Positions 37 through 57,990 are shown, counted from the stretch's first letter. The stretch: DNA of 64,000 bases from Candidatus Methylomirabilia bacterium (GCA_041499965.1 JBGQLG010000003.1:15896-79895), one strand, 5' to 3'. Notes: generated by a model from the sequence alone, not told the origin. Numbers and translations are program-made.

Positions 37-1758
37 GTGGTCCGTTTCCAGGCGCTCGCGCTCGACTACGACGGCACGCTGGTCTCACACGATCACCTCA
101 CCGACGCCACCGTCGCCGCGCTGGAGCGCGCCCGCCGGGCGGGGTTGCAGCTCATCCTGATCACCGGGCGCACCTTCTTCGAGCTCTCACGCGTGTGCCG
201 CCGCCTCGACCTGTTCGACGTCGTGGTCGCCGAGAACGGCGCCGTCCTGCACTATCCGGCCGAGGACGCCATCCGGGACGAGGGGCCGTCACCGCCGCCG
301 AGGCTGATCGCCGCGCTGGACCGGCAGGCGATTCCCTTCCAGGTCGGCCGCGTGATCGTGGCGACCGGCCACAGCTATGAGGGGCAGGTGCGCCGGATCA
401 TGGCGGAGCTGGGGGTCGAGCTCGAGCTCGTGCGCAACCGGGCCGCGCTGATGCTGCTGCCGCCCGGCGTATCGAAGGGGAGCGGGCTCAAGCACGCGCT
501 GCAGCGGTTGGGACTCTCGTTCCATGACGTCCTGGCCATCGGCGACGCCGAGAACGATCTGGAGATGTTCGCGACCTGCGGTTTCGCCGCCTGCCCAGCC
601 AGCGCGGTCGCCGAGGTGACGCAGGTCGCCGACTGGGTGTTCGCCGGGGAGGGTGGCGAGGCGGTCACCCGCGCCATCGACGGCCCCATCCTGGACGGTT
701 CGCTGTCGCCGCCGCGCTCGGGTCGGGAGCGGATCAAGCTCGGCTGGGCCCGGACCACCACCAAGCCGGTGACCATTCCCGCCCAGGGCGTGAACGTGCT
801 GGTGCACGGCGACTCGCTGTCCGGCAAGTCCTGGCTGGCCGGCGGCTTCGTCGAGCGCCTCGTCGCCGCCCGCTACGCGACGTGTGTCATCGATCCCGAA
901 GGGGACCATCAGGCGCTCGCCGACGTGCGGGGCATCACGTGGTGCGAGATCCGCACCACCGAGGACTGGGACGCCGCGCTCGCCGCCTTCGAGCGCAATC
1001 CGGCCGCCAGCGTGGTCGCGGATCTATCGTCCATGCCGGTCGATCGCCAGCTCGGGCTCGTACGCCACGGGCTCACCCTCTTGCGGAGGCTGCGCGCCCT
1101 GCGCGGGCTGCCGCACTGGATCGTGCTCGACGAGGCGCACTACGCGTTGCACGAGGCCGGCGTACCGGATGACGCCGTCGGTCTCGACGCCAAGGGCTTC
1201 TGTCTCGTCACCTATCGACCGAGCGGCCTGCGGGCCTCGGTGCTCGACGCGATCGACCTGTTCGTGTTCGGACGCACCACGGCCGCCGCCGAGCTGGCGT
1301 TCCTCCGGGCGCTCCTGGAGCGGCGCGGGCGGTGCGCGGCGAGCGTGCTCGACACGCTGCCGGAGCTCACGCCTCCCGACTATCTGCTGGCGGCCGACTG
1401 CGGCGGCGTCGGCTTCGTGGCGCCCCCACGCGCGACCCGCCACGTCCGTCATCTCGGCAAGTACGTTGATCACCCGGTGGCGCCGCCGGAGGCGTTCGTC
1501 TTCCGGCGCGGCGATGGTCGATTCACGGCCGAGGCCAACACGCTGCGGTCGTTCCTGGGCTGTCTGCGGGAGGTCGACGACCACGTGCTCCTCCATCACG
1601 CCTCGCGCGGCGACTTCTCTCGCTGGGTCGCCGACGTGTTTCTCGATCGGCAGCTCGCCAACCAGCTCCGCAAGGCCGAGCGGCGGTCGGGGAAGGATGA
1701 TGGGGCGCTCCTGCGAGCATCCCTCACCGGTCTGGTGGCCGGGCTCATCGAGCCGTGA
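37..1758 (+). CDS. HAD-family (Cof-like) hydrolase fused to a P-loop ATPase-like domain and a C-terminal DUF5752-like domain
   Basis: ALDYDGTL, LITGR, AENG, SKG, IGDAENDLEM HAD motifs; GDSLSGKS, IDPEGD, VLDEAH; C-terminal HHASRGDFSRWV; start moved to GTG 37 because of the promoter. Confidence 0.85.
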   Translation: MVRFQALALDYDGTLVSHDHLTDATVAALERARRAGLQLILITGRTFFELSRVCRRLDLFDVVVAENGAVLHYPAEDAIRDEGPSPPPRLIAALDRQAIPFQVGRVIVATGHSYEGQVRRIMAELGVELELVRNRAALMLLPPGVSKGSGLKHALQRLGLSFHDVLAIGDAENDLEMFATCGFAACPASAVAEVTQVADWVFAGEGGEAVTRAIDGPILDGSLSPPRSGRERIKLGWARTTTKPVTIPAQGVNVLVHGDSLSGKSWLAGGFVERLVAARYATCVIDPEGDHQALADVRGITWCEIRTTEDWDAALAAFERNPAASVVADLSSMPVDRQLGLVRHGLTLLRRLRALRGLPHWIVLDEAHYALHEAGVPDDAVGLDAKGFCLVTYRPSGLRASVLDAIDLFVFGRTTAAAELAFLRALLERRGRCAASVLDTLPELTPPDYLLAADCGGVGFVAPPRATRHVRHLGKYVDHPVAPPEAFVFRRGDGRFTAEANTLRSFLGCLREVDDHVLLHHASRGDFSRWVADVFLDRQLANQLRKAERRSGKDDGALLRASLTGLVAGLIEP

Positions 1759-2495
1759 GGCACGAGTGGGGCCGGGTGCCCGGTCCCGTCGAGGTGAGGC
1801 GCTTCCTGGAAGGCCCCCAGCCGCGGAGGTCCGAGCTCCGGCTGGCCCTGGGCATCTTCACGGAGTTCATTCGCGGCTTCCGGTCGTTGCACTTCGTGGG
1901 GCCCTGCGTGACCGTGTTCGGGTCGGCGCGCTTCAAGGAAGACCACCCCTACTACGCGATGGCGCGCGCGATCGGCCACGGCCTCGCCGAGCTCGGCTTC
2001 ACGGTCGTCACCGGAGGCGGGCCCGGCATCATGGAGGCAGCCAACCGCGGCGCCCGCGAGGCGCGCGGCCGCTCGATTGGCTGCAACATCGAGCTGCCGG
2101 CGGAGCAAACGCCCAATCCGTACCTGGACCGCTGGATCACGTTCCGCCACTTCTTCGTGCGCAAGGTCATGCTGGTGAAGTATTCGTACGCATTCGTGGC
2201 GCTACCGGGCGGCTTCGGCACGCTCGACGAGATCTTCGAGACCGCCACGCTGATCCAGACGGGCAAGATCGAGGACTTTCCGCTCGTCCTGGTGGGACGC
2301 GACTTCTGGCGCCCGCTCACCGACTTCCTGCACGGCCCGCTGGAGCGGATGGGACTGATCGATCCCCGGGACGCCGACCGGATCATCGTCGCGGATTCGG
2401 CGACGGAGGCGGTGGAGGCCGTGCGCACCATCGCCGTCCCGAGCTTCGGCCTGCGCTATCGGCAGCCGCGCCGCCGGTGGCTGCTGAACGAATGA
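1755..2495 (+). CDS. LOG-family (TIGR00730-type) Rossmann-fold protein
   Basis: VTVFGSAR, TGGGPGIMEAANRGA, FFVRKVML, PGGFGTLDE; GTGA overlap with upstream stop. Confidence 0.92.
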   Translation: MRHEWGRVPGPVEVRRFLEGPQPRRSELRLALGIFTEFIRGFRSLHFVGPCVTVFGSARFKEDHPYYAMARAIGHGLAELGFTVVTGGGPGIMEAANRGAREARGRSIGCNIELPAEQTPNPYLDRWITFRHFFVRKVMLVKYSYAFVALPGGFGTLDEIFETATLIQTGKIEDFPLVLVGRDFWRPLTDFLHGPLERMGLIDPRDADRIIVADSATEAVEAVRTIAVPSFGLRYRQPRRRWLLNE

Positions 2496-2518
2496 CCGGG
2501 CCGAGCTCGCGAATCCGC

Positions 2519-2593
2519 CTACGTCGCCGGCCGCATCCGCTCAGCGTACTTGATCATGATCTCGCCCATCGCGTTCATCATCTCGCCCCGCAT
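2519..2593 (-). pseudogene. Met-rich C-terminal remnant or micro-ORF (MRGEMMNAMGEIMIKYAERMRPAT)
   Basis: Coding-like codon usage and amphipathic Met-rich helix, no clear 5' part. Confidence 0.3.
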
Positions 2594-2633
2594 CGCAGAC
2601 CGCCCCTGGTTCGGGGCGGCCGCGCCGCCCGGG

Positions 2634-4253
2634 TCATCCGAGCTCCGGCTCGCTCCCCGTCTCTCTCCTGGCCTCGGGCAGCTGGACCATCGTGGCCTCG
2701 GTCAAGAGGAGCAGGCTGGCCACCGACACTGCGTTCTCGAGCGCCACGCGAACGACCTTCGTCGGATCGATGATGCCGGCCTCGACGAGGTCCACCCACT
2801 GCTTGCGGCCGGCGTCGAACCCGAGCGCGCCGGTGCCCTCGCGCATGCGGGCAACGATGACGCCGCCGTCGACGGCGGAGTTCTCGGCGATCTGGCGGGT
2901 CGGCGCTTCCAGGGCACGCCGGAGGATCTGCAGGCCCGTCCGCTCGTCGCCCTCGGTCTTCGCCTCTTCGCGCTCGACCGCCTCGATGGCGCGTAGCAAC
3001 GCCAGCCCGCCGCCTGGCACGATCCCCTCGGCCACGGCCGCCTTGGTGGCGTTGATCGCGTCCTCGAGCGCCTCCTTGCGGCTCTTCATCTCGGTCTCCG
3101 ACGGGGCGCCGACCCGGATGACGGCGACGCCGCCCGACAGCTTGGCCAGCCGCTCCTCGAGCTTCTCCCGGTCGTAGTCACTGGTCGTCTTCGTGATCTG
3201 CTGGCGGATCTGCTGCTTGCGCCCCTCGATGGCGGCCTTGCTGCCGTGGCCGCTGATGATGGTCGTGTTGTCTTTGTCCACCACCACGCGGCCGGCCCGC
3301 CCGAGCTGGCTGGCCTGGACGTTCTCGAGCTTGGTCCCGGTCTCCTCGCTCAGCACCTCGCCGCCGACCAGCACCGCGATGTCGGCCAGCATCTCCTTGC
3401 GGCGGTCGCCGAAGCCGGGCGCCTTCACCGCGATGCAGCGCAGCGACCCGCGGAGCTTGTTGACGACCAGCGTGGCCAGCGCCTCACCCTCGACGTCCTC
3501 GGCGATGATCACCAGGGCCTCGCCCGCCCGCGCGATCTGCTCCAGCAGCGGCAGGAGGTCCTTCATGATCGTCAGCTTGCGGTCGGTGACCAGCACCCGG
3601 GCATTCTCGAGGACGGCTTCCATCTTCTCCGGGTCGGTGACGAAGTAGGGGGAGAGGTAGCCGCGGTCGAACTGCAGACCCTCCACCACCTCGAGCTGGG
3701 TCTCCGTCGTCTTCGACTCCTCCAGCGTGATGACACCCTCGTCGCCGACCTTCTCCATGGCGTCGGCGATCAGCTCACCGATAGCGGTGTCGTTGTGGGC
3801 CGAGATCGCCGCGACCTGCGCCTTCTCCAGCCGGCTCTTCACCGGACGCGACAGCTCGCGCAGTCGCTCGACGGCCACCCGCGTGCCGCGGTCGAGGCCC
3901 CGCTTGAGGTCGACGGCGCTCGCCCCGGCCACCACGTTCTTGACTCCCTCGGCGAAGATCGCCTGGGCCAGGATGGTCGCCGTCGAGGTGCCGTCGCCCA
4001 CGGCGTCGCCGGTCCGCTCGGCCGCCTGCCGGATCGTCTGCGCGCCGAGGTTCTCGGTCGGATCTTCGAGGTTCGTCTCCTTGGCGATGGTGACGCCGTC
4101 GTTGCACACGAGCGGCGCCCCGAACTTCCGCTCGATGAGCACGCACTTCGATCGGGGGCCGAGCGTCACCCGCACCGCATCGGCAACGGCGTTCACGCCA
4201 CGGAGAATTTTCTCTCTCGCCTGCGACCGGAACATGACCTGCGTGTGGCTCAT
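2634..4253 (-). CDS. groEL: Chaperonin GroEL (no adjacent groES)
   Basis: [53 protein letters not shown]; ATG 4253 with GGGAGG RBS; 539 aa. Confidence 0.97.
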
Positions 4254-4293: not shown

Positions 4294-4309
4294 TGCAGTG
4301 CGGATGCCA
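4294..4309 (-). promoter_or_regulatory. sigma54 promoter for groEL
   Basis: TGGCATCCGCACTGCA; AAT-N8-TT at 4325-4337; palindrome CGGGGC-N6-GCCTCG at 4361-4378. Confidence 0.8.
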
Positions 4310-5259: not shown

Positions 5260-5631
5260 TCAGTGCGCCGCTTCGGCCCGGGCTTGGCAGGTCGCACACC
5301 GGCGGGCCGTCGGCACCGCCCGCAGGCGGGTCAGCGGGATCGCGCGATGGCAGCTCTCGCACACGCCGAACACGCCGGCCTCGAGCCGGCGCTGCGCGGC
5401 GTCGATCTCGTCCATCTCGTGCCGCTCGCGACCCTCGAGCCGGGCCAGGAGGTCACCGATGGCACCGGTCGCTGCGCCCTCGCCGAATTCGCTCGGCTGC
5501 TGCGATTCGAGCGTCGCCAGCTCGTCGTCGGTGGTGGCGACGGTACGCGCCAGGCTCCAGCGCATCGCGGCCAGGCGCTGGCGAAACTCCGCGGTCACGC
5601 GCGGCCGTTTCCTGCGTGTCGACGTCGTCAT
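5260..5631 (-). CDS. TraR/DksA C4 zinc-finger protein
   Basis: Coiled-coil followed by FGVCESCHRAIPLTRLRAVPTARRCATCQ; GGAG RBS. Confidence 0.92.
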   Translation of the reverse strand: MTTSTRRKRPRVTAEFRQRLAAMRWSLARTVATTDDELATLESQQPSEFGEGAATGAIGDLLARLEGRERHEMDEIDAAQRRLEAGVFGVCESCHRAIPLTRLRAVPTARRCATCQARAEAAH

Positions 5632-5687: not shown

Positions 5688-5703
5688 TGCACTGCGGGTG
5701 CCA
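5688..5703 (-). promoter_or_regulatory. sigma54 promoter for TraR/DksA operon
   Basis: TGGCACCCGCAGTGCA; AAT-N8-TT at 5719-5731. Confidence 0.8.
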
Positions 5704-7948: not shown

Positions 7949-8383
7949 CTACTCGGCCTTGATGGGGATGGTCGTGCCCTTGGCGCCCGGCGCCTTGGGC
8001 AGGGTGACGGTGATCACGCCGTTCTTGAACGTCGCCGTGGTCTTGCTGCCGTCCACCGGCGCCGGCAGGCGAACGCTCCGCATGAACGCGCCCCACGACC
8101 GCTCCACGCGATGCTGGCGCTCGTCCTTCTCTTCCTTCTTCTGCTCCTTCTCCCCCTTGATGGTGAGCATGTCGCCATCGAGCGAGATCCCGACGTCCTT
8201 CGCGTCCACGCCGGGCAGCTCGGCCTTCACGATGACCGCGTCCTTGCCCTCGGTCACGTCGAGCGCCGGAGTCCAGTCGCCGAGTGCCGGCAGCTCGGCC
8301 CACGGCGACTCGAAGAACCGCTCGAACAGCCGGTCCATCTCATGCTTGAGCCCGGTCCCGGTCCACGGTGTCAGTGCGCGCAT
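7949..8383 (-). CDS. Hsp20/alpha-crystallin small heat-shock protein
   Basis: WTPALDV, AELPGV, LTIKGEK, ERSWGAFMRS, FKNGVITVTLPK, C-terminal IPI. Confidence 0.96.
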   Translation of the reverse strand: MRALTPWTGTGLKHEMDRLFERFFESPWAELPALGDWTPALDVTEGKDAVIVKAELPGVDAKDVGISLDGDMLTIKGEKEQKKEEKDERQHRVERSWGAFMRSVRLPAPVDGSKTTATFKNGVITVTLPKAPGAKGTTIPIKAE

Positions 8384-8436
8384 CGTCGTCCTCCTCGTTA
8401 CGGGTTCCTGCTTCGATCTGACGTCGCTCGACAGGG

Positions 8437-8452
8437 TGCAAGGCGACTGCCA
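8437..8452 (-). promoter_or_regulatory. sigma54 promoter for hsp20-CBS operon
   Basis: TGGCAGTCGCCTTGCA; AAA-N8-TT at 8468-8480. Confidence 0.82.
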
Positions 8453-8503
8453 CGGCGAAGGATCGAGAAATCACGGCGTTCGACGGGCGGCAGGTGAAGC
8501 GCG

Positions 8504-8542
8504 CGCGGCGACGGCGCCCCAGCGCGGGGCGCCGTCGCCTCA
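8504..8542. promoter_or_regulatory. Tandem palindromic enhancer-like sites
   Basis: CGCGGC-GACGGC-GCCCCA gcg CGGGGC-GCCGTC-GCCTCA. Confidence 0.65.
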
Positions 8543-8743
8543 ACGCCGATGCCGCGTCAGGGTGAGACTCGTTCGCCGGGGGGCGTCCTCACGGAGGCGA
8601 TCGAAGATGCCGCCGCCCGATGTCGTGCTTCCCGGCGGCGGCGTCGTCTGGCCCCGGCCCATCGCCGCGCTGGCCAGGCAGCAGACCATCATCGCGGCGA
8701 GAAGCGGGCACGGGAGGATGCGGGGCAACCGACAACACAGCAT
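8540..8743 (-). CDS. Small protein with signal-peptide-like N-terminus (67 aa, possibly truncated)
   Basis: MLCCRLPRILPCPLLAAMMVCCLASAAMG...; ATG 14 nt after a good sigma54 -12 box. Confidence 0.45.
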   Translation of the reverse strand: MLCCRLPRILPCPLLAAMMVCCLASAAMGRGQTTPPPGSTTSGGGIFDRLREDAPRRTSLTLTRHRR

Positions 8744-8755: not shown

Positions 8756-8771
8756 TGCAAGGCTTCGGCCA
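8756..8771 (-). promoter_or_regulatory. sigma54 promoter (divergent pair with pfkB promoter)
   Basis: TGGCCGAAGCCTTGCA; shared palindrome TGAGGC-GCGTCC-GCCTCG at 8812-8829. Confidence 0.7.
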
Positions 8772-8890: not shown

Positions 8891-8906
8891 CGGCACCCGA
8901 CTTGCC
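8891..8906 (+). promoter_or_regulatory. sigma54 promoter for pfkB
   Basis: CGGCACCCGACTTGCC; AA-N8-TTT at 8863-8875. Confidence 0.75.
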
Positions 8907-8923: not shown

Positions 8924-9919
8924 ATGCTGCGCTCCGGATCGACGGCCACGCCCGAACGCGATGGGGAAGCATCCGTTCCCGCCATCGTCACACTCACGAT
9001 GAATCCGGCCATCGACGTGAGCGCGAGCGTCGACTACGTGACCCCGGACCACAAGCTTCGCTGCGAGACGCCGACCTACGAGCCGGGCGGCGGGGGCATC
9101 AACGTCGCGCGCGCGATTCGCACGCTGGGCGGAGAAGCCTTGGCGCTCTTTCCCGCCGGCGGTCCGGCCGGGGCCCTGCTGTCCTCGCTCCTCGACGCCG
9201 AGGGCGTGCGGCATCGGACCGTGCCCATCGCGGGCTGGACGCGCGAGAACATGAACGTCACCGAGCGCGTGACCCGACGGCAGTTCCGGTTCGTCATGCC
9301 GGGACCCACGCTGGACGAGCCCGAATGGCAGTCGGTCCTCGATCAGCTGGGCGCTCTCGATCCTGCCCCCCGGTATCTCGTGGTGAGCGGAAGCCTGTCG
9401 CCCGGCGTTCCGGCCGACTTCTACGCGCGGCTGGCGCGGATCGTGAGACCGCGCGGCGTCGCGCTGGTCCTCGACGCGTCCGGCGAGCCACTGCGCCGGG
9501 CCGTGGCCGAGGGGGTCGACGTGCTCAAGCCGAGCCTGCGCGAGTTCGAGGAGCTCACCGGGGAGGAGGGCGTCGAGGAGGCGCGGCTACCGGTCCTGGC
9601 CCGGCGCCTCATCGACGACCGGCGGTGCGCCATCCTGATCCTGTCACTCGGAGCGCGGGGCGTGTTCTGGATGTCGGCGTCGGAGCGTGGTCGCCTGGTG
9701 GCGCCGGCCGTGCCCGTGCGGAGCACCGTGGGCGCGGGTGACAGCATGGTCGCCGGCATCGTCCTGTCGCTCTCGCGTCAGCACACGCTCGGCGAGGCGA
9801 TCCGGTTCGGCGTCGCCGCCGGGGCCGCCTCGGTCATGAATCCGGGAACGCAGCTCTGCCGCGCCGAGGACGTCGAGCGGCTCTACGCCGAGGTGGGTGT
9901 CGCGCCGAGCACGCGCTGA
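8924..9919 (+). CDS. pfkB: 1-phosphofructokinase/Pfk-2 family hexose kinase
   Basis: IVTLTMNPAID, PGGGGINVAR, VSGSL, LKPSLREF, STVGAGDSMVAG. Confidence 0.92.
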   Translation: MLRSGSTATPERDGEASVPAIVTLTMNPAIDVSASVDYVTPDHKLRCETPTYEPGGGGINVARAIRTLGGEALALFPAGGPAGALLSSLLDAEGVRHRTVPIAGWTRENMNVTERVTRRQFRFVMPGPTLDEPEWQSVLDQLGALDPAPRYLVVSGSLSPGVPADFYARLARIVRPRGVALVLDASGEPLRRAVAEGVDVLKPSLREFEELTGEEGVEEARLPVLARRLIDDRRCAILILSLGARGVFWMSASERGRLVAPAVPVRSTVGAGDSMVAGIVLSLSRQHTLGEAIRFGVAAGAASVMNPGTQLCRAEDVERLYAEVGVAPSTR

Positions 9920-14146: not shown

Positions 14147-14162
14147 TGCACTGAGCCTGCCA
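14147..14162 (-). promoter_or_regulatory. sigma54 promoter for htrA-ppsA-CBS
   Basis: TGGCAGGCTCAGTGCA; ATG 14134 is 14 nt after the -12 C. Confidence 0.78.
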
Positions 14163-14215: not shown

Positions 14216-14253
14216 TGTCCCGGTGGCGCCCCAGGTGGGGCATCGGCTCGCCG
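14216..14253. promoter_or_regulatory. Tandem palindromic sites between divergent promoters
   Basis: TGTCCC-GGTGGC-GCCCCA gg TGGGGC-ATCGGC-TCGCCG. Confidence 0.55.
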
Positions 14254-14304: not shown

Positions 14305-14320
14305 TGGCAGTGAGGTTGCA
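14305..14320 (+). promoter_or_regulatory. sigma54 promoter for archease-rtcB
   Basis: TGGCAGTGAGGTTGCA; ATG 14334 is 15 nt after the -12 C. Confidence 0.83.
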
Positions 14321-38062: not shown

Positions 38063-38117
38063 CTCCTGCATACGCGCCATGAACTCGACGTACGTACACA
38101 CAGGGGAGGGAGCGCCC

Positions 38118-47632: not shown

Positions 47633-50600
47633 TCACCGCTCGTTCTGGCGCGACCCCATCGTCACCTGGACCTCGTGGATGCGACCGTCCGTGAGGCGTG
47701 GCAGGATCGGCGGGTCGAGACGCTCACCGTCGAGCAGCATTCGCTCGACGCCCGAGCTCACGCCGCGTGGGTTGTCCACCTGGATGCGAACGATCGTGGC
47801 GCCGTCGTGCCAGACGACCTCGAACCCGGGCCAGGCCGCGGGGATGTGCGGCTCCAGGTGCCACCCGCCCTCCGACGGCCGCATGCCGAGGATCTTCTCC
47901 AGACCCAGGCGGTACGCCCAGGCCGCGGCGCCCGTGTACCAGGTCCAGCCGCCGCGGCCGCTCCACGGCGGCGCCGCGTAGACGTCGGAGGCCAGCACGT
48001 ACGGCTCGGTGCGGTAGAGGGCCGCCGCCTCGGGAGTCAGCGCGCGCCGGATCGGGAGCAGCCGCTGGAACAGGTCCACGGCGTGCTCGACGTCGCCGAG
48101 CTCGAGCAGCGCCCACAGGACCCAGATCGCCGCATGCGTGTACTGCCCGCCGTTCTCCCGGACGCCGGGCGGATAACCGCGGATGTAGCCGGGATCGTCC
48201 GTGCTCTCTGCGAACGGCGGCGCCAGGAGCAGGATGAGACCGTCCGGCTCCTTCACGAGGCGCCGCATCACCGCCTCCATCGCGGCGGCGGCTCTCGACT
48301 TTTCCGCCGCTGACGAGAGCACTGCCCACGACTGGGCCACGGAATCGATCTGGCACTCGGCCCTCTCGGCCGACCCGAGCGGGGTGCCGTCGTCGTAGTA
48401 CCCTCGCCGATACCAGGCGCCATCCCAGGCCGTCGCCTCCAGGGCGGCGCGCAGCTCCTCCGCCTGGCCTCGGAGCGTCTCCGCACGAGCGCTGTCGCCG
48501 AGGCGCGCGGCCACGCGACCGAAGCGCGTCAACGTCGCGTGCAGGAACCAGCCGAGCCACACGCTCTCGCCGCGGCGGCCGGCGCCGACGCGGTTCATCC
48601 CGTCGTTCCAGTCGCCGCTGCCGAACAGTGGCAGTCCGTGCGCGCCGGCGGTGCGGCCGCGGTCGATCGCGGCCAGACAGTGGGTGTAGAGCGTGGCGCG
48701 ATGCGGTCCGGGCTCGAACCGTGCGTACCGCTCGACTTCGTCCGGCTCGAGCGGCTCGCCCGCCAGGAACGGTATCGCCTCCTCGAGGATGGTTGCGTCG
48801 CCGGTCGCCTCGACGTAGTGCGCCGTCACGAACGGAAGCCACAGCAGATCGTCCGAGCACCGTGTCCGCACGCCGGCGCCGGCCGGCGGATGCCACCAGT
48901 GCAGGACGTCCCCGGCCTCGAACTGGTGGCGCGCCGCCTCGAGGATGTGGTCGCGGCAGAGCGCGGGCAGGCCATGAATCAGCGCCGCCACGTCCTGCAG
49001 CTGGTCGCGAAAGCCGAACGCGCCGCTGGACTGGTAGAAGCCGGTCCGTCCCCAGAACCGGCTGGCCAGCAGCTGGTACAGGAGCCAGCGGTTGAGCATC
49101 AGGTCGAGCGCAGGGTCCGGCGTGCGCACCGTGACCGCGCCCAGTCGCGCATCCCACTGCCGGTTCAGCTCGGTCCACGCCGCCTCGACGACGGCGCGGT
49201 CACGGTACTTCGTGACGAGATCCAGCGCCTCGTCGCGGCCGGCCGCCTGGCCCAGCATGAAGTGCGCGTGCACCGTCGCGCCGGGGGCCAGGTCGAGGGA
49301 GATCTGCAGCGCTGCGCATGGATCGCGGCCCGCCCGGACCGTGCCCGCCAGGCCGATGCGCCGCAGCGCCGCCGGCGTCGCGTAGCCGCCGTGTCGACCG
49401 AGGAACTCCAGCCGGTCGGCGGTCAGTCCGCGGAGCTTCGCGCTCACCGCCACGAATGCGACACGGGCTGCGAAGTCCTCGCTCCACGCATTGCGTGCGA
49501 GCAGCGCTTCGGACGCCGGATCGAACTCCGGGACGACGAACGCCTGGGACTGCTCGCGCGACGTTCCGAGCACCCACTCGACGTAGTACGTCACCGTGAC
49601 CGTGCGCGGGCGGTCCAGGCGGTTCGTCAGCGCGAGCTCGACGAGCTTGACGGGGTCGTCGGGCGCTACCCAGAGGCGCACGCTCTGCTCGAGCCCGTGG
49701 CTGCGGTGAAGGAACCGCGCGTAGCCGGCGCCGTAGGCCACCTGGTAGGCGCCGTCCGCCGGGGCGGGCCGGGGCGTCGGACTCCACACGGCGCCGGTCG
49801 CCTCGTCGCGGAGGTACAGCACTTCTCCCGGCTCGTCGGAAATCGGATCGTTCCGCCACGGCGTCAGCCGGTTCTCGCCGCTGTTCTCCGCCCACGTGTA
49901 GCCACCCCCCGACTCCGTCACGACGAAACCCAGCCGCCGGTTGGCCACCACGTTGACCCACGGCGCCGGCGTCGACTGACCCGGCTCGAGATGGATGATG
50001 TACTCACGGCCGTCGGCGGCGAAGCCCCCGAGCCCCAGATCGAACAGCAGCGTGTCCGGTCTCGGCAACGTCTCCGGCGCTTCGGTGGGCGGCGGCGAGC
50101 TCGGAGCGAGCAGCGGCAGCCTCGCCGGCTCGCCAGCCAGTCGAGCGAGGTGCTGACCGATGCTGCCCTGCGAGCCGTCGAGCACCACGCGGGCCGCCGA
50201 CAGCAGCAGCGTGCGATCGGCCCCGTCGATCCGGGCCGCATGGATCACGAACACGCCTCCGAGCCGATCGCGAGAGGCCTCGGCGCCGGCCTGGACGAGG
50301 GCGCGCTCGACGGGCTCGTCCATCTCGGCCACGTAGCCTCCGGCCCGCTCGTTGAGGATCACCACGTCCACGCAGACGCCACGCCCCCGCCAGAACCGCT
50401 GGGCGCGCAGCACCGATGGCAGGATGGCCGCGTCCTCGGCCGAGCCGATGCGCACCAACAGGATGGGGAGGTCGCCCGAGATCGCGTGCTTCCACAGGGA
50501 GCGCTGTCCGAGGTGGTTCAGGGCCAGTGTGGCGGCGGAGGCCCGCAGGGCGTCGTGCGAGCAGAGGAGGAGTGAGAGGAGCGTTGCGGCCGCGGGAAGA

Positions 50601-53600
50601 TCGTGTGGGGCGAGCTCCAGATCGGCCGCTTCGATCTCGCTGCGGCGGCGCGCCAGCTCGAAGCTCCACTCGAGCGCGGGGAGCGACCGGTAGCGGCGAG
50701 CGAGCGCCAGGACGCCCTCGCGAGAGCTGGCGGCGAGCATGACGAACCCCAGCGATGTGGCGCGATGTCCCGGCAGCTCGACCTCGGCCGACAGCGCCAT
50801 GATCGGATCCAGCGTCGCGCCCGTCATGCCGGCGCCGAGGGGCCCCGCGCCGTCGAGCGCGGCCGGCCTTCGAGTCGTCCGCCCGCGTCCCACGAAGCGT
50901 TCCCGGGCCGTCTCGTACCCGGCTGGCCGAGCACGTCCCGCCGGCAGAACGAGCAGGTGCGCGAGCCAGGCGTCGGGTCCGCCGCCGGAGCGCGGGCGGC
51001 GATGAAAGATCAGGGCGTGCAGATCCTCGAGGTACTCGCTCTCCACGAAGAGCTTGCTGAACGCCGGATGCCGTCGGTCCTCGGCGGCATCGCCGACGAC
51101 GACTTCGGCGTAGCTGGTGACCTCGAGCCGGCGCCGAAACGCGGTCTGGTTGCGCACCGTCACGAGCCGCACTTCCGCATCGTCGGCCGGCGCCACACAC
51201 ACCTGCTGGCGAAGCGAGACGCCATGGACGCGCCGATGCGTCTCGACCATGTGGGCGTGGAACGTCGTCTCGCCCTCGCCGGGCGCCAGGGACCACGCGA
51301 GCCTGCGCGCGGGCTCGCGCACGAAGAGCCGGAATCCCGGGGCAGCGAGGGTGCGGTCAGCCTGCTGGCGGGTCAGGGCCACGGCGCCCCAGCTGCTGGC
51401 CCCTCCGCCATCCGAGACGAGGGTCTGATAACGGCCGTTGGAGAGCACGTGGGCCTGCGGGAAGCCTGCGTCCGGACGGGCCGGCCAGGGCTCGAGCGGC
51501 GCGCGCCGCGGCGCCGCCGTGCGCCGCGGGCCTTCCGGCACCAGGCGTGTCCGCCGCAGGGGCGCCGCGGTGGCGGGGCGCTCGAAGGCCAGCGCCTCCG
51601 TGGTCTGGACCACCGGGTCGGCATGGAAGCGGCGTACCATCGGGTGTCCGCAGAGCAGGTTGTCCACGGCGACCAGGATCATGCCCTGGTGGTGGGCCAT
51701 GAACGAGCGCACGATCGCGTGGTGCGTGCCCTCGGCCAGACGCGAGGCTGTGAAGTCCACCGCCTCGTAGAGGCCGTATCGCCCCATGAGTCCGAGGTGC
51801 TCCAGCCGCCCGAGATTCGCCATCACCGCCTCCGGCGCGAACGGCAGCGCGAGCAGGCAGGCATACGGTGCGACGACCACGTCGTCCTCCAGCCCTCGCT
51901 TGAACCCGAGGTCGGGAACGCCGAAGGCGCGATACTGATAGTTGCGGTGGTCGTCGAACCGGTAGTACCCCGACTCCGACATGCCCCACGGGACGCCCCG
52001 TCGCCCGGCGTAGGCGATCTGGATCCGTACGGCGCTCGCGCACGCTCGACCCATCAGGCTCTCCGGTGCCTCGCGGAGCAGCAGCGTCGGCATCAGGTAC
52101 TCGAACATCGTGCCGCTCCACGACAGCAGCGCGCTGCCACCATCGACGCGGCAGAAGGGGCGGCCGAGGTGGAGCCAGTGCTCCTCGGGCACGTCGCCCT
52201 TCGCGATGGCGACGAAGCTGGCCAGCCGGGCCTCGGACGCGAGGAGATCATAGTGGTGGGCATCCGGGCGATCCGTGGCGACGTCCTGTCCGATATAGAA
52301 GAGCCGCCGGCTTTCGTCGTAGAGAAAGGTGAAGTCCATCGCGTCGAAGAGCGCGTCGGTGCGCCCGGCAAGCCCGGCGAGGCTCGTGAGGACGGTCCGG
52401 GCGGCGTCCTCGGCCCGGCCGATGGCCTCTCGAAGCCCCGCCGCCCAGGCTCGGACGCCGGCCATGCCGGCGGCGTCGACGGGCAGGGTATCGAGTTGCT
52501 TCGCCAGCCGCGTCACGGCGGCGCTGGCACTCTCGCAGGCCGAGGGCAACCCATGCAGCGTAGGGTCGAGGGAGAGGCATCGCTCGAACTCATCGCGCAC
52601 CTCGCCATTCAGGACGAGGGGCGCGCTCGCGCCCGGCACCTGCCAGGGAAGGTAGAGCTCGATGTCGCGCCGCATGGCTCCGAGGTGCTGGCGTACCTCG
52701 GCGGACCAGACGCGAAGCTCGGCGAGCAGGTCCTGGTCGAGGTCCTCGCGGCCCGGGGCGATCGCCGACAGGAGGGTACGGTCGAACTCGGCGCATCCCT
52801 GCTCGAGGAGCCGGGCAATGCCGGGTGCCCACGCCCGCCGCTGCCCCTTCAGGGCCGCTGCCTCCTGGCGCGCCCTCGCGACGCAGGCGCGAAGGCCGGC
52901 GAACCGCGCCCGGTCCTGCCGTCGAACGCGGCCGTCGATGACCTCGCCCAGGATGTCGAGCGTGTCGAGCAGGCCGTCCCATCCGGCAGGCCCGATGATG
53001 GGGGCGTGGACGAGCTCCAGGCATCCCTGCTTCACGGTCAACAGCGAGGCGGCCAGGTTGCCGCTGTCCACCGTGGAGACGTAGCGGGGCAACAGCGGCG
53101 TGAGATCGGCGGTGTCGTACCAGTTGTAGAAGTGGCCGCGATGGCGCTCCATCCGCTCGAGGGTGTCGATCGTGTTCCCGAGACGCTGGACCACCGACAG
53201 CAGACCCGCATGGCCGAGGTCGTGGGCCGAGAGCGTGGCGAGCTGCAGGAATCCGATGTTCGTCGGCGAAGTCCGTCGTGCGATCTCCCCCCGGGGCTCT
53301 TCCTGGAAGTGGTCCGGTGGAAGCCACTGGTTCTCCGGTCCGACGAACGTGTCGAAGAAGAGCCAGGTCCGGCGTGCCAGCAGACGGAGGCGACGAGCCT
53401 GGCCCTGCCCCGGTGCCGGCGGCCGGTCGGGCCATGCCCGGCCGACGATGTCGGCGATCTCGGGGGCGAGGAGCCAGAGCAGCAGGACGCCAAGCGCGGC
53501 GGGCAGCGCCGCCGGCCGGGAGATCGCGAGGAGCGCCCCCGTGCCGAGCGCGGCCAGCGGCGCCGCCGCCATCTCGCGCCAGAGGGGCCGGCGTGAGCTG

Positions 53601-56089
53601 GTGCCGCCGAGCATCGAGGCGATCCGCGCTGCGGAGGTCCACTCGAGCAGGCGGCGTTTCCGGCGCAGGCGGACGAGCGTGCGCAGGATGGCATCGGCCA
53701 GGACGGCCGCGCGATGCGGCAGGAAAGCGACGTGCAGGATCCAGAGCGCCGAGGCGGGTCGGAGCCGGAGCCAGACACCGCGGATGGCGGCAGGCAAGGC
53801 CGCCACCCGGTGGGCCGACACGAGACCCCCCATCGCCTCGCTGAGCAGCGGCGTCGCCAGCGGGAGGACGCCCAGCGCAGTCCAGATGACGGGCCAGCCG
53901 GGGAACAACGCCCACGCGAGGAGCAGGAAGGCGAGCAGCGTGGGAGGAAGCAGCGTGCGCCGCAGGTTGTCGACGATCTTCCAGCGCGAGATCAGCGACA
54001 GCCGGTTTGGCCCCCGGCCACCGCCCGCCAGGGGCACGCGGCGGCCGAGCCAGGGCAACAGTTGCCAGTCTCCGCGCGCCCAGCGGTGCAAGCGCCGCCA
54101 GTATCGGCGATAGTCGACTGGATAGTCCTCGAAGAGCACGACGTCGCTCACCAGGCCGGCTCTGCCGTGGATGCCCTCGAACAGGTCGTGGCTGAGCAGC
54201 GTGTTGTCGGGCACGCGTCCCTGCAGGCTGCGCTCGAACGCGACCGGGTCGTAGATTCCCTTGCCGACGTAGATCCCTTCACCGAACAGATCCTGGTAGA
54301 CGTCCGAGGTCGCGCCGGCGTAGAGGTCGAGGCCCGGGTCTCCCGCGAAGAGGCGGGTGAACCGCGACGCGGCGGCGCCCAGGGGGGTCACCTCGACCCG
54401 GGGTTGCAGGACCGTATAGCCGGCACTGACGCGGCCGGTGAGGGGATCGAACTCCGCCCGGTTGAGCGGGTGGGCGAGGGTGGCGACGAGGCGATGCGCG
54501 GCGCCCCGAGGAAGCTCGGTATCGGCGTCGAGCGTGAGCACGAACCGAATGGAAGGCAGGATGCGCGGATCACCCACGTGGCCGGCGAAGGTGGTCGTCT
54601 GATCTCCGGCCAGCAGGCGGTTGAACTCGGCGAGCTGGCCTCGCTTGCGCTCCCATCCCATCCAGCAGCCCTCGCTGGGGTTCCACAGTCGCTTGCGATG
54701 CCGCAGATGAAACGGTCCGGTGTCTGTCCCCCCGTATCGCGCATTGAGCGCACGAACGCCCTCCTCGGCGCGCCGGAGCAGGTCGGCGTCGTCCGGCATC
54801 GATTCGGCGGGCGCGTCGGCCAGGGTGACCAGCAGCGCGAGATGGAGGTTCGCGTCCGCGTTGGCCAGCCAGTGGACCTCGAGCCGGGACACGATCGCCG
54901 CGACGTCGTCACGCGAAGCCAGGAGCACCGGCACGGCCGCCATGGTCCGGCAGTCGGCGGGGATGCCCTTGCGGAAGTCCATCTTGGGCAGGACACGCGC
55001 GGGCAAGAGGCGGGTCGTGAGGAGGTTGACGAGACTGACGCCGATCGTCGTGGCCGGGACGACGGCGAGCGCCATGCCCGACGCGGCGACGGCGAGGCTG
55101 GCGCCGGCCATGAGCAGTGCCACGCCCAGCCCTGTCACATGTAGCGCGGCGACCAGGAGGATGGCTCCGAGGTACCAGGGGGTCGGATGACGCTCGAGCC
55201 CCCGCCGCCATCGGGTACGCCAGCGGGAACGATACACGACGATCCGTTCGAGGCCGACGACGCCCTGGCCGATGAGGTGGTCGCCGACATGGCGGCTCCG
55301 ATCTCCGGTACTCTCCCCGGACAAGCGGATGGCCTCGCGCGCCACCGCGTCCTCCGACCAACCGCTCCGGGCGGCCAGGTCCTCGACGACACCGCGGTAG
55401 CGATCACGCGTATCGAAATCCATGCTCGGGTAGACGCCCGCGGGATCCTCACGCAGGATCCGCTCGGTCTCGCTGACCTGTTCGAAGACGGCGTTCCAGT
55501 CGGTCGTCTCCAGCGTGCGCAGACTGCGGATGCATGCGGGCAGGGTCTGGTCGGCCGGCGGCTGCCCCGGCAGGCCTTCTGCCTGGAATGCGCTGATGGT
55601 GGCGGCCGCCAGGGACTCGAGGAGAACGATGCGGAGCAGCACGGGCAGCGCCCACACCTCGGCGATGGTGAGTGGCCGTCGCGTCTGGAAGTCGGCGACG
55701 AGGAGCGTGATCTGCTCGACTTCGACGTGATGCCCGCCGGCCGTGACGATCTCCCGGGCCAGCTCGTAGGCCACCGGGTGCCCGCGCAGCTCCCCGTCGG
55801 CCAGACGAGGAAGCCGCCCCTCGAACACAGGCGGGAACTCCTCGCGAACCAGCTGGAAGGCTCGTTCGACGATGTAGTAGTTGTCGAGCAGCCATTCCGC
55901 GGCCGGGTGGTCCGACCCAGGGCCCCCCGCGGCGAGTCGGCGAGACGTCGTGGCGAGAGTCTGCTCGGGGCCTCGCAAGCGGTCCACAAGGTGTGGAGCT
56001 CGACGCCGGGCCGGCAGCGGCGCCGTACTCGCCAGGCGTCGAACCCGTTCGCGCACGTCACCGGCACTCACGACCAGGCCAGGAATCAC
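47633..56089 (-). CDS. ndvB: Cyclic beta-1,2-glucan synthase (GT84 + GH94 domains), 2818 aa
   Basis: AEWLLDNYY, WMGWERKRG, TLDADT, LSHDLFEG, RWARGDWQ, YDLLASEARL, YQSSGAFGFRDQLQD, GDWNDGMN, PPGVRENGGQYTH. Confidence 0.93.
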   Translation of the reverse strand: MIPGLVVSAGDVRERVRRLASTAPLPARRRAPHLVDRLRGPEQTLATTSRRLAAGGPGSDHPAAEWLLDNYYIVERAFQLVREEFPPVFEGRLPRLADGELRGHPVAYELAREIVTAGGHHVEVEQITLLVADFQTRRPLTIAEVWALPVLLRIVLLESLAAATISAFQAEGLPGQPPADQTLPACIRSLRTLETTDWNAVFEQVSETERILREDPAGVYPSMDFDTRDRYRGVVEDLAARSGWSEDAVAREAIRLSGESTGDRSRHVGDHLIGQGVVGLERIVVYRSRWRTRWRRGLERHPTPWYLGAILLVAALHVTGLGVALLMAGASLAVAASGMALAVVPATTIGVSLVNLLTTRLLPARVLPKMDFRKGIPADCRTMAAVPVLLASRDDVAAIVSRLEVHWLANADANLHLALLVTLADAPAESMPDDADLLRRAEEGVRALNARYGGTDTGPFHLRHRKRLWNPSEGCWMGWERKRGQLAEFNRLLAGDQTTTFAGHVGDPRILPSIRFVLTLDADTELPRGAAHRLVATLAHPLNRAEFDPLTGRVSAGYTVLQPRVEVTPLGAAASRFTRLFAGDPGLDLYAGATSDVYQDLFGEGIYVGKGIYDPVAFERSLQGRVPDNTLLSHDLFEGIHGRAGLVSDVVLFEDYPVDYRRYWRRLHRWARGDWQLLPWLGRRVPLAGGGRGPNRLSLISRWKIVDNLRRTLLPPTLLAFLLLAWALFPGWPVIWTALGVLPLATPLLSEAMGGLVSAHRVAALPAAIRGVWLRLRPASALWILHVAFLPHRAAVLADAILRTLVRLRRKRRLLEWTSAARIASMLGGTSSRRPLWREMAAAPLAALGTGALLAISRPAALPAALGVLLLWLLAPEIADIVGRAWPDRPPAPGQGQARRLRLLARRTWLFFDTFVGPENQWLPPDHFQEEPRGEIARRTSPTNIGFLQLATLSAHDLGHAGLLSVVQRLGNTIDTLERMERHRGHFYNWYDTADLTPLLPRYVSTVDSGNLAASLLTVKQGCLELVHAPIIGPAGWDGLLDTLDILGEVIDGRVRRQDRARFAGLRACVARARQEAAALKGQRRAWAPGIARLLEQGCAEFDRTLLSAIAPGREDLDQDLLAELRVWSAEVRQHLGAMRRDIELYLPWQVPGASAPLVLNGEVRDEFERCLSLDPTLHGLPSACESASAAVTRLAKQLDTLPVDAAGMAGVRAWAAGLREAIGRAEDAARTVLTSLAGLAGRTDALFDAMDFTFLYDESRRLFYIGQDVATDRPDAHHYDLLASEARLASFVAIAKGDVPEEHWLHLGRPFCRVDGGSALLSWSGTMFEYLMPTLLLREAPESLMGRACASAVRIQIAYAGRRGVPWGMSESGYYRFDDHRNYQYRAFGVPDLGFKRGLEDDVVVAPYACLLALPFAPEAVMANLGRLEHLGLMGRYGLYEAVDFTASRLAEGTHHAIVRSFMAHHQGMILVAVDNLLCGHPMVRRFHADPVVQTTEALAFERPATAAPLRRTRLVPEGPRRTAAPRRAPLEPWPARPDAGFPQAHVLSNGRYQTLVSDGGGASSWGAVALTRQQADRTLAAPGFRLFVREPARRLAWSLAPGEGETTFHAHMVETHRRVHGVSLRQQVCVAPADDAEVRLVTVRNQTAFRRRLEVTSYAEVVVGDAAEDRRHPAFSKLFVESEYLEDLHALIFHRRPRSGGGPDAWLAHLLVLPAGRARPAGYETARERFVGRGRTTRRPAALDGAGPLGAGMTGATLDPIMALSAEVELPGHRATSLGFVMLAASSREGVLALARRYRSLPALEWSFELARRRSEIEAADLELAPHDLPAAATLLSLLLCSHDALRASAATLALNHLGQRSLWKHAISGDLPILLVRIGSAEDAAILPSVLRAQRFWRGRGVCVDVVILNERAGGYVAEMDEPVERALVQAGAEASRDRLGGVFVIHAARIDGADRTLLLSAARVVLDGSQGSIGQHLARLAGEPARLPLLAPSSPPPTEAPETLPRPDTLLFDLGLGGFAADGREYIIHLEPGQSTPAPWVNVVANRRLGFVVTESGGGYTWAENSGENRLTPWRNDPISDEPGEVLYLRDEATGAVWSPTPRPAPADGAYQVAYGAGYARFLHRSHGLEQSVRLWVAPDDPVKLVELALTNRLDRPRTVTVTYYVEWVLGTSREQSQAFVVPEFDPASEALLARNAWSEDFAARVAFVAVSAKLRGLTADRLEFLGRHGGYATPAALRRIGLAGTVRAGRDPCAALQISLDLAPGATVHAHFMLGQAAGRDEALDLVTKYRDRAVVEAAWTELNRQWDARLGAVTVRTPDPALDLMLNRWLLYQLLASRFWGRTGFYQSSGAFGFRDQLQDVAALIHGLPALCRDHILEAARHQFEAGDVLHWWHPPAGAGVRTRCSDDLLWLPFVTAHYVEATGDATILEEAIPFLAGEPLEPDEVERYARFEPGPHRATLYTHCLAAIDRGRTAGAHGLPLFGSGDWNDGMNRVGAGRRGESVWLGWFLHATLTRFGRVAARLGDSARAETLRGQAEELRAALEATAWDGAWYRRGYYDDGTPLGSAERAECQIDSVAQSWAVLSSAAEKSRAAAAMEAVMRRLVKEPDGLILLLAPPFAESTDDPGYIRGYPPGVRENGGQYTHAAIWVLWALLELGDVEHAVDLFQRLLPIRRALTPEAAALYRTEPYVLASDVYAAPPWSGRGGWTWYTGAAAWAYRLGLEKILGMRPSEGGWHLEPHIPAAWPGFEVVWHDGATIVRIQVDNPRGVSSGVERMLLDGERLDPPILPRLTDGRIHEVQVTMGSRQNER

Positions 56090-56094: not shown

Positions 56095-57132
56095 TCAGTG
56101 GCCCGGACGGCTCCGCGCCGCCATTTCGGCGCGCGTCGGCCCCCGCGCGCCCAGGCCGAGGTCCTGCAGCACGAGGATCGGCCGGGTGCTTTCGGCCAGG
56201 AGGCGGGCGCTGACACTGCCGTAGCGCTCACTCGCATCGGCCGTACGGCCGTGGGCGCATACCACGATCAGATCGACGTCGGCCCCCTCCGCCAGCGCCC
56301 GAATCGCCGGCGCCCGCCGGGACGATACGACGCTTTGCACGCTGACGCGAAGCGCCTGGCCAGCCAGCCCACTCTGCAGCTCACGCAGGTACCGCTCGGC
56401 TTCCACCCGGTTGCGCTCGGTGAGCTGCGAGGCGACGGCCACGTCGTCCGCGGACGGTGGCATGCGCCGAGGCATCTCCGGCTCGGGCACCACGTGGGCG
56501 AGGATCAACTCGGCGTCATGCGCGCGCGCCAGAGCGACGGCGAGTGTGAGGACGGACTCGGCCCGTGGCGAGCAATCCAGGGGCACGAAGATTCGGCGCA
56601 AACGAATCTCGCCGACGGGCCGTTCATCGGCGGTGTGCGCGGGGACGACGAGGACCGAGCTGTCGGCGCGGGCCACGACTTTCTGGGCGGTACTGCTCAG
56701 GACCCAGCCGCTGAGCCCGCCTTCACCGTGGGTCGACAGGACGACGAGATCGACGTCGTGTCCCCTGGCGAAATTGATGATCTGTTCGGCGGGCCGGCCC
56801 TCCAGCAACTCGGCGGCCGAGGTCAATCCATCCGCCTTCAGTTCGCCATCCAGCTTTGCGAGCTGGCTGTGCGCCTCCGCCCGCCGGATCTGCCACTCCA
56901 CGGCGTCGTGAGCGTGGCGCGGCGAGGCCGCGGTGACCGGTGGCTCGAGGATACGGAGGAGCGTGATGCGCGCAGCGAACACCCGTGCCAGGGCAACGGC
57001 CCACGGAAGCGCGCACTCTGCGAGCGCCGACCCATCCAGCGGCACCAGCAGGTGCTCGATGGTCAGCTCTGGGCACCCGATTTCATGCTCGCCGCCGGGC
57101 GGTCCAACCGCGGATGGTCTACTGGATCGCAT
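56095..57132 (-). CDS. Tandem-domain universal stress protein
   Basis: LLVPLDGS, LVVLSTHG, IFVPLDCS, LIVVCAHGRT, YGSVS; GGAGG RBS. Confidence 0.93.
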   Translation of the reverse strand: MRSSRPSAVGPPGGEHEIGCPELTIEHLLVPLDGSALAECALPWAVALARVFAARITLLRILEPPVTAASPRHAHDAVEWQIRRAEAHSQLAKLDGELKADGLTSAAELLEGRPAEQIINFARGHDVDLVVLSTHGEGGLSGWVLSSTAQKVVARADSSVLVVPAHTADERPVGEIRLRRIFVPLDCSPRAESVLTLAVALARAHDAELILAHVVPEPEMPRRMPPSADDVAVASQLTERNRVEAERYLRELQSGLAGQALRVSVQSVVSSRRAPAIRALAEGADVDLIVVCAHGRTADASERYGSVSARLLAESTRPILVLQDLGLGARGPTRAEMAARSRPGH

Positions 57133-57264: not shown

Positions 57265-57280
57265 TGCAACGTGCGCGCCA
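57265..57280 (-). promoter_or_regulatory. sigma54 promoter for USP-glucan synthase
   Basis: TGGCGCGCACGTTGCA; TGGGGC-N6-GGGGCA a TGAGGC-N6-GCCGCC at 57333-57369. Confidence 0.77.
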
Positions 57281-57578
57281 GGACTTTCCCGTGCGTTTCG
57301 TGCCGAACCCGCGACATGGAAGCCCAGCGAAGTGGGGCGCCGGAGGGGCAATGAGGCGGAGACGCCGCCCCGTTCCCTGTCTTGACTGCGGCGTGGTCGC
57401 GAGGATCGGCCGGGCAGCCGCCATCGCGATGCGCTACGCGAGCTCCAGCAGCGCGAGGGCGGGTTTCCGTCGGCGCTCGAGCACCGGCACGTGGCATTGC
57501 TGCACCACCTGTCGCATCGATGTCCCACGCTCTCCCTCGGTTCCGGGCGCAAGTTGTGGGATTCGCTGGCGTGGGACT

Positions 57579-57594
57579 CGGCACCGTCGTTGCT
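57579..57594 (+). promoter_or_regulatory. sigma54 promoter for HPF-like gene
   Basis: CGGCACCGTCGTTGCT; AA-N8-ATT at 57551-57563; tandem sites at 57490-57527; ATG 57607 is 14 nt after the -12 C. Confidence 0.8.
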
Positions 57595-57606
57595 GTCTCG
57601 TTGGGC

Positions 57607-57990
57607 ATGACGAAACCGGCCTCTCGCCCGCGTTCCTCTTCGGTGCCCACGATCGAGATCGTAGGCCTCGCCATCGCACCGACGTTCAGGGCCCGTATCG
57701 CTCGGCAGATCCGGCGCGCGCTCGTCGGCGTCCAGACGAGCCCGGTCCACGTCCGCGTCAGCTTCGCGGACGTCAATGGCCCGAAAGGCGGTCTCGACGC
57801 GCGGTGCGCCATCGACGTGACGATTCCGCGGACGGCGCCGCTCCACGTCGAGGAGACCGCCGCGAGAGACGTCACCGCCTTCGACCTGAGCGCGGCGGCG
57901 ATTTCGCGACAGATTGCGCGGCAACTCGAGCGCAGGCAGAAGAGCGGGCGGTATCCGAAGAAGTACTACGCGGCCCAACGCTTGCCGTAG
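57607..57990 (+). CDS. HPF/RaiA-like ribosome-associated protein
   Basis: VRVSFADVNGPKGGLDARCAIDVTIP, AFDLSAAAISRQI, basic tail. Confidence 0.8.
   Translation: MTKPASRPRSSSVPTIEIVGLAIAPTFRARIARQIRRALVGVQTSPVHVRVSFADVNGPKGGLDARCAIDVTIPRTAPLHVEETAARDVTAFDLSAAAISRQIARQLERRQKSGRYPKKYYAAQRLP

Follow-up and report, generated by a model that had tools for sequence, protein, structure and literature searches.

A 64,000-nucleotide (nt) stretch of a Rokubacteria genome (hereafter the window: contig C3, positions 15896-79895, of assembly G000, which holds 5.8 Mb in 329 contigs at 71% G+C) carries a series of predicted sigma-54 promoters that end almost on the start codon of the gene they face. We consider it probable that the sites are true sigma-54 promoters of the enhancer-dependent kind, set directly against the start codon, and that they give rise to leaderless or near-leaderless mRNAs. 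Transcription by the sigma-54 (-24/-12) RNA polymerase would begin with the initial base of the start codon itself, or no more than about 4 nt ahead of it. Such an mRNA would have no space for a Shine-Dalgarno (SD) sequence and would depend on leaderless translation, with its AUG or GUG at or close to the 5' end; the organism would use this route widely, with several hundred sigma-70-type genes sharing the geometry. Most near-start promoters of the window would belong to one stress/dormancy regulon, marked by a palindrome placed 73-77 bp upstream of the -12 C, or further out by one or two turns of the helix; an NtrC-type response regulator probably binds this palindrome. As judged from the sequence, the architecture is real, conserved, lineage-wide and mechanistically plausible.

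Eight first genes had been named in the original prediction as starting 14-16 nt after the -12 C, and every one of these distances is present in the DNA as claimed (Table 1; d denotes the distance from the -12 C to the first base of the start codon). We scored the sites with a position matrix trained on 439 intergenic GGCA-N7-TGC sites of the same genome. Seven of them reach 11.4-18.6 bits and have the GG and GC doublets ten bases apart in TGGCAC-N5-TTGC. The eighth, a weak motif, faces a 67-codon open reading frame (ORF) that matches no Pfam family, has a codon score of -0.06 per codon, was missed by the gene caller and sits in the enhancer region of the Hsp20 and pfkB promoters; lacking a family, a coding signal and a strong motif, it was dropped as a gene. 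The other seven sites precede genes with Pfam support (the HPF-like one under the cut-off), whose domains begin 4-79 residues past the proposed start. Three further genes had been assigned leaders of 7-9 nt: pfkB (d=19) and the HlyD-type adaptor (d=21) are as described, while the probable site of polX (34728, d=20; the gene name is that of the original prediction) scores just 8.7 bits.

The trained matrix converged on T-GGCA-C-N5-TTGC, which is the canonical sigma-54 consensus with every conserved position reproduced. Non-coding DNA, 9.2% of the genome, contains 143 of the sites that reach 13 bits, and coding DNA 60; with the threshold lowered to 11 bits the numbers are 260 and 296, implying about 230 real sigma-54 promoters. 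The genome has a single rpoN (one PF04552 match, 206 bits) and 26 strong activator genes (PF00158 matches of at least 200 bits), none of them on contig C3. Searching only the window for a loose consensus, with up to two mismatches, gave 56 matches against 48 expected, which is not above chance; the genome-trained matrix was used in its place. No Rfam elements were found in the window.

Genome-wide, the spacing between promoter and start codon is strongly non-random. A codon-usage model trained on the genome itself called 5,337 genes (91% of the genome); each gene-facing site was then assigned the first in-frame start that lies 10 nt or more beyond the C. This tabulation, proposed as a check in the original prediction, yields a clear peak at 14-18 nt, above chance. 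Among 100 sites of at least 14 bits that face genes, 35 have a start at 14-18 nt (mode 15), against a mean of about 5.4 for five-base bins between 19 and 60 nt (Poisson p ~2e-17). The proportion is 14 of 68 at 12-14 bits and 13 of 121 at 10-12 bits; with the reversed matrix it is 2 of 50 at 12 bits or more and 4 of 155 at 10-12 bits. The strict seed GGCA-N7-TGC places a start at 14-18 nt in 41 of 187 cases, and other seed spacings and scrambled seeds are flat, with no peak. From these counts we estimate some 50-60 near-start sigma-54 promoters in the genome. Contig C3 carries 9 of the 53 sites with at least 12 bits and d=13-19. Outside the window, 25 of the 33 genes with d=14-16 were scanned against Pfam: they include response regulators, a hybrid kinase, a PilB-type ATPase, LpxC, a glycosyltransferase and GNAT enzymes, as well as large secreted beta-helix or Ig proteins, a proteasomal ATPase, a patatin and acyl-AMP ligases. 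Judged by these, the wider near-start set is not specific to translation but has the mixture of envelope, stress and signalling roles that is usual for sigma-54 genes.

The layout is kept in relatives. In the syntenic region of G007, a genome of the same genus with proteins 71-94% identical to their window orthologues, six of the seven sites are retained with d within 1 nt (htrA, archease, IMPase, AIRS-like and ABC 15 each, HPF-like 14), and the spacer sequences differ. The OmpA-domain and HlyD-type adaptor promoters are found there too, at d=18 and d=22. Archease loci of relatives have d=14-16 in 7 of 13 cases, spread across two families; three of the genomes concerned belong to a different family of the same order.

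To place the bias on the tree, we counted the pattern TGGCA-N6-TTGC followed by ATG after N13-17 (near) and after N28-32 (control, equivalent to a spacing of 29-33 nt). In the 33 genomes of family f1, near matches number 399 against 160 controls, and near exceeds control in 30 of the 33. Leaving out G000 gives 380 against 159, and leaving out the unpublished genomes G022 and G091 as well gives 362 against 152. In 28 genomes of the class's other families the counts are 104 and 120 (102 and 120 without the unpublished G081), and five outgroups (two Nitrospira-type genomes, Geobacter, Zixibacteria and Syntrophobacterales) are unbiased at 24 and 21. The near-spacing bias is thus a trait of the family-level lineage f1, not of sigma-54 promoters generally.

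Nor does it belong to the archease operon as such. The gene downstream of archease was located at 80 loci, 63 of which have archease upstream; in four of the closest eight a sigma-54 site lies 15-22 nt before the start. The closest public contigs with that gene come from Candidatus Rokubacteria, Methylomirabilota and Methylomirabilia (95-81% protein identity). Distant archease loci (Nitrospira, Zixibacteria, archaea and others) have no near-start site, their matches of 9 bits or more being intragenic or far upstream, with the exception of locus L173 (a 9.8-bit match at 20 nt). The near-start layout was consequently rejected as a property of that operon.

The original prediction also held that these genes have no room for a Shine-Dalgarno, and this stands: GGAG, GAGG or AGGA occurs within 17 nt 5' of the start in 6 of 60 genes, which is chance level, and the spacer is just 13-15 nt long and lies partly 5' of any plausible transcription start. 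GGAGG-type boxes precede five leadered sigma-54 genes of the window (Cpn60, DksA-like, Hsp20, baeRF and BON), so the organism does use SD sequences.

The base before the start codon is informative as well. Transcription start sites usually have a pyrimidine at -1 and a purine at +1. A C directly precedes the start codon in all 12 genes with d=14, in 17 of 22 with d=15 and in all 6 with d=16, or 35 of 40 in total. The corresponding figure is 546 of 1,002 (54%) for GGAGG-led starts (binomial p ~9e-6) and 297 of 437 for sigma-70-type leaderless-like starts (p ~0.004). This context favours initiation at the purine of the start codon, and the leader may accordingly be 0 nt long. The previously given figure of 2-4 nt presumes a transcription start exactly 12 nt past the C. 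The textbook distance from the C to the sigma-54 start is 12-13 nt, which would give leaders of 1-4 nt, as opposed to 0 nt if transcription begins at the codon; we prefer neither reading. Differential RNA sequencing in C. jejuni, according to the excerpted text of that study, places the end of the sigma-54 motif 8-13 nt before the mapped start (PMC3847290), so that a start at C+14 or C+15 would fall within the measured range.

Several observations weigh against leaderless sigma-54 transcripts or limit their reach. The modal spacing of 15 nt exceeds the textbook distance by 2-3 nt, requiring either a shifted initiation or a leader of 2-3 nt, and leaderless translation in E. coli reportedly suffers from 5' extensions even when these are short. 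Start-codon usage is undistinctive: ATG accounts for 43 of 60 starts, compared with 768 of 1,002 SD-led and 290 of 437 sigma-70-type leaderless-like ones. Gene calls and first in-frame starts come from the self-trained caller and not from curated annotation. The RNA data consist of assembled contigs of relatives, mostly 90-99% alike (from two metatranscriptome runs containing 5-6% of the sampled words), which are uninformative on transcript starts, strands and levels. Conservation of the near-start spacing is moreover locus-specific. At the HAD gene, G007 lacks any matching site that reaches 9 bits despite 82% protein identity, pointing to a recent gain or loss of that promoter. For IMPase, G007 has the sole site of at least 9 bits among the 29 other loci examined, and the next orthologue, in G008 (68% identity), has none. 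At HPF-like loci of relatives, sites of 14 bits or more occur in 9 of 29 but mostly lie 43-97 nt upstream; two are near-spaced, one of them in the unpublished G022.

Among the alternatives, the one that survives best, unlikely as we find it, accepts the sigma-54 sites as real and lets the translated mRNAs come from upstream sigma-70 promoters or read-through, with long leaders and SD-independent initiation; the closeness to the start codon would then be a by-product of compact intergenic regions. The RNA contigs leave room for it by being silent on 5' ends, 16 of the 40 genes with d=14-16 have a same-strand upstream neighbour, and a TANNNT word is found within 150 nt upstream of 9 of the 40. 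Such a by-product would not, however, yield a sharp mode at 14-16 nt, or its retention within 1 nt despite spacer turnover. TANNNT is in fact unenriched (none within 150 nt at 31 of 40 genes, against about 26 expected), the gaps to the upstream gene measure 58-625 nt with 24 of the 40 genes divergent, and a sigma-70-like promoter was not found in the htrA-archease spacer.

It is less likely still, and in our view quite improbable, that the start codons are mis-assigned and the true starts lie downstream, each with its own ribosome-binding site and an ordinary short leader. High G+C content keeps reading frames open, leaving up to 17 upstream in-frame candidates, and in the HPF-like gene codon usage sets in only 12 codons past the ATG and the first nine residues are unconserved in G007. 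That gene nevertheless has no other in-frame start within about 10 codons downstream of the ATG. Elsewhere the domains begin too early for a downstream start: at residue 5 in the HAD-IIB phosphatase-like protein, 4 in archease (domain 4-141) and 15 in IMPase, and, outside the window, at 4 in GT2, 4 in LpxC, 5 and 12 in response regulators and 12 in AMP-binding proteins. Orthologue alignments begin at residue 1 in five of the seven genes (HAD, archease, IMPase, AIRS-like and ABC). Finally, that the motif is the site of another DNA- or RNA-binding factor, or a chance G+C-rich pattern, as the loose window search might suggest, is hardly credible given the full consensus in the refined matrix, the non-coding enrichment, the orientation of sites towards genes with a flat reversed control, the phased palindrome placed 73-97 bp upstream like enhancer sites, and the presence of rpoN with its 26 activators.

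Leaderless genes also seem to be common in this genome behind sigma-70-type promoters. TANNNT words are over-represented 7-11 nt ahead of the first in-frame start (128, 180, 119, 93 and 70 genes, against about 25 per bin), an excess of about 465 genes genome-wide. Leaderless translation therefore seems to be general here and not a sigma-54 speciality, and the sigma-54 class looks like the same translation habit on a second promoter type. In M. tuberculosis, by the excerpted account of PMC3898074, one gene in four is leaderless, and TANNNT has its centre 7-12 bp upstream of mapped starts.

By its content, the window is a sigma-54 stress/dormancy island. Genes with sigma-54 promoters encode, by Pfam, Hsp20, Cpn60, DksA/TraR-type, tandem Usp, BON, OmpA-like, aeRF1-like, HPF-like and HtrA proteins. 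Further members are the archease operon, the IMPase / APS-kinase-PCMT / SAM-synthetase run, the HAD-IIB phosphatase-like gene, pfkB, and the adaptor with its ABC exporter. Most island promoters are marked by an 18-bp palindrome, TGGGGCGC-N2-GCGCCCCA, which emerged from k-mer and dyad counting (a small inverted-repeat scan of four divergent spacers was uninformative). With up to four mismatches allowed, it lies 55-125 bp upstream of 17 of the 22 C3 sites, against 11 of 172 elsewhere. Its distances from the -12 C cluster at 73-77, 84 and 94-97 bp, inside the 70-150 bp at which activator sites typically lie. The palindrome is absent at the HPF-like (within 125 bp), AIRS-like and baeRF sites.

The best copy outside C3 (one mismatch) is found on contig C262 (locus G000:C262:3629-5635), just 3' of a gene for an NtrC-type response regulator with REC, AAA+ and HTH_8 domains; the sigma-54 promoter of a Usp gene (of a Usp/DUF308 pair) lies 75 bp further downstream. 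We regard this regulator as the candidate activator of the island regulon, which would depend on sigma-54 in vivo.

The suggestion that near-leaderless genes stay translatable when normal initiation falls finds no support. Of the 23 palindrome-bearing, regulon-like sites, 15 are near-leaderless and 8 SD-led, the latter including classic abundant stress proteins; Hsp20, Cpn60, DksA-like, BON and Usp of the same regulon have leaders of the GGAGG type. The palindrome on such SD-led genes speaks against leaderlessness as the means of keeping the regulon translatable, and so do the roughly 465 ordinary sigma-70-type genes that look leaderless too. The sole outside support is an analogy: leaderless mRNAs of M. 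tuberculosis rise in starvation, as stated in the excerpted text of PMC3898074. We see only a modest chance that the full scenario applies to this lineage: sigma-54 would place +1 precisely on the purine (A or G) that opens the start codon (C+14-16, 2-3 nt beyond textbook), giving truly leaderless, activator-gated mRNAs, and a repair and metabolic subset of a dormancy regulon whose products include ribosome-hibernation factors would be translated directly by 70S ribosomes while SD-dependent 30S initiation is off.

Table 1. Sigma-54 promoters, their genes and palindrome copies in the window.
Feature	Position (strand)	Start codon	Sigma-54 site	d (nt)	Score (bits)	Remarks
HAD-IIB phosphatase-like	37-1758 (+)	GTG 37	8-22	15	15.6	
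Cpn60	2634-4253 (-)		4295-4309	42		Leadered; GGAGG-type SD
DksA/TraR-type	5260-5631 (-)		5689-5703	58		Leadered; SD
Hsp20	7949-8383 (-)		8438-8452	55		Leadered; SD
Palindrome pair	8504-8542					Upstream of Hsp20 promoter: 75 and 96 bp
67-codon ORF	(-)	ATG 8743	8757-8771	14	10.0	Weak sigma-54-like motif; dropped as a gene
pfkB-family kinase	8924-9919 (+)	ATG 8924	8891-8905	19	12.6	
HtrA-type protease	12809-14134 (-)	ATG 14134	14148-14162	14	11.4	Pfam-supported
Palindrome	14216-14233					Between htrA and archease promoters: 77 and 94 bp, respectively, from the -12 C
Archease	14334-14762 (+)	ATG 14334	14305-14319	15	15.2	
481-residue protein	14773-16218					3' of archease; the name RtcB is that of the original prediction and of its relatives
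Archaeal-type SAM synthetase	16548-17753 (-)					In IMPase run
APS-kinase-like domain/PCMT (protein-isoaspartate methyltransferase) fusion	17750-19111 (-)					In IMPase run
IMPase family	19108-19938 (-)	ATG 19938	19954-19968	16	18.6	
Palindrome	20019-20036					One mismatch; 73-74 bp upstream of IMPase promoter
AIR-synthase-related (AIRS-like)	21569-22615 (-)	GTG 22615	22630-22644	15	11.5	Pfam-supported
aeRF1-like (baeRF)	22937-24067 (+)		22873-22887	50	17.1	baeRF family 10; leadered; SD
Palindrome	24745-24762		24837-24851			One mismatch; 97 bp upstream of the site
BON domain	35253-35927 (+)		35151-35165	88		Leadered; SD
OmpA domain	38079-38711 (+)	ATG 38079	38047-38061	18	15.7	
HlyD-type adaptor	42116-43537 (-)	ATG 43537	43558-43572	21	14.1	Divergent from ABC promoter
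Palindrome pair	43626-43662					Between HlyD and ABC promoters: 77/96 and 84/65 bp
ABC ATPase	43734-44480 (+)	ATG 43734	43705-43719	15	14.3	Pfam-supported
Tandem Usp	56095-57132 (-)		57266-57280	134		Leadered
HPF/S30AE-like	57607-57990 (+)	ATG 57607	57579-57593	14	15.1	

The last gene of Table 1 is HPF-like only. Its Pfam S30AE match (PF02482) scores 22.2 bits, below the gathering cut-off of 23.7, and it has neither an NCBIfam family match nor a PDB sequence match (E up to 0.01). Homologues at about 40% identity (loci L034, L041 and L044-L048) often have sigma-54 sites of 15.8-19.1 bits, 43-97 nt upstream. Sigma-54 control of the HPF-like family thus looks conserved in the order, with a variable leader length. 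The aeRF1-like protein weakly matches NCBIfam models for ribosome hibernation factors of the MSMEG_1130 / Rv2629 family, at 55.6 and 33.3 bits, far below their cut-offs.

The IMPase promoter heads a whole run of genes (16548-19938, minus strand), IMPase being followed by two others under one near-leaderless sigma-54 promoter. In a sediment metatranscriptome, the summed contig depth reaches about 1,200 over the Hsp20 region (8000-8663) and 0-156 elsewhere in 20 kb, a poor measure to which relatives contribute. At 47633-55891 on the minus strand, codon usage indicates one very long gene (about 2,750 codons).

Sigma-54 promoters and leaderless mRNAs are each textbook matter, and their pairing is apparently undescribed in the literature searched: no description joining the two was found, in a search that did not extend to promoter figures in supplements. 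The main texts of two D. vulgaris sigma-54 papers (PMC4641369, PMC3897727), in the parts consulted, give no leader lengths, and a mapped near-leaderless start might sit in their supplements. The excerpted text of a PexR paper (PMC12754779) was rejected as a precedent, its leaderless remark concerning a sigma-A promoter.

Should the 5' ends be as predicted, expression of these genes would be set purely by activator-gated transcription, with no leader on which small RNAs, riboswitches or SD masking could act. It would also follow either that sigma-54 is more flexible in its choice of start site than the label -12 implies, or that leaders of 2-3 nt are well translated. The spacing between promoter and start codon could in that case serve the annotation of both in uncultured high-G+C soil phyla. 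Altogether, SD-led, sigma-70-leaderless and sigma-54-leaderless classes make up a first picture of expression signals in Rokubacteria, together with a predicted, defined stress/dormancy regulon and its operator.

We now compare the system with known ones. Canonical sigma-54 promoters, such as glnAp2, nifH, pspA and the rtcBA promoter of E. coli with its activator RtcR, have leaders of tens of nucleotides. Like these promoters with their enhancer-binding proteins, the ones described here combine TGGCAC-N5-TTGC, one rpoN and many AAA+ activators, with an upstream palindrome that sits on one face of the helix, some 75-100 bp from the -12 element. They differ in that the start codon follows 14-16 nt past the -12 C, with no Shine-Dalgarno. 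The likeness to E. coli rtcBA extends to function, an RNA-repair (archease/RtcB-type) operon being under predicted sigma-54 control here; however, the archease operon shares the palindrome of the island in place of an adjacent RtcR gene, and no activator gene was found on contig C3.

Leaderless genes of Deinococcus-Thermus reportedly have a -10 box adjoining the ORF. With the sigma-70-type leaderless genes of M. tuberculosis, as portrayed in the excerpted text of PMC3898074, the near-start genes share a fixed short distance from promoter to start, the lack of an SD and their position as first genes of units. The promoter class differs: a closed sigma-54 complex needs an ATP-driven activator, so that the messages would be tightly switched as well as leaderless.

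Finally, the island recalls a dormancy regulon in its gene content, and in its gene content only. The mycobacterial DosR regulon comprises Usp proteins, the alpha-crystallin HspX, pfkB, and S30AE-like and aeRF1-like hibernation factors; the island likewise joins Usp, Hsp20, pfkB, S30AE-like and aeRF1-like genes. It does so in another phylum, with another operator, and under the predicted control of sigma-54 and an NtrC-type regulator.

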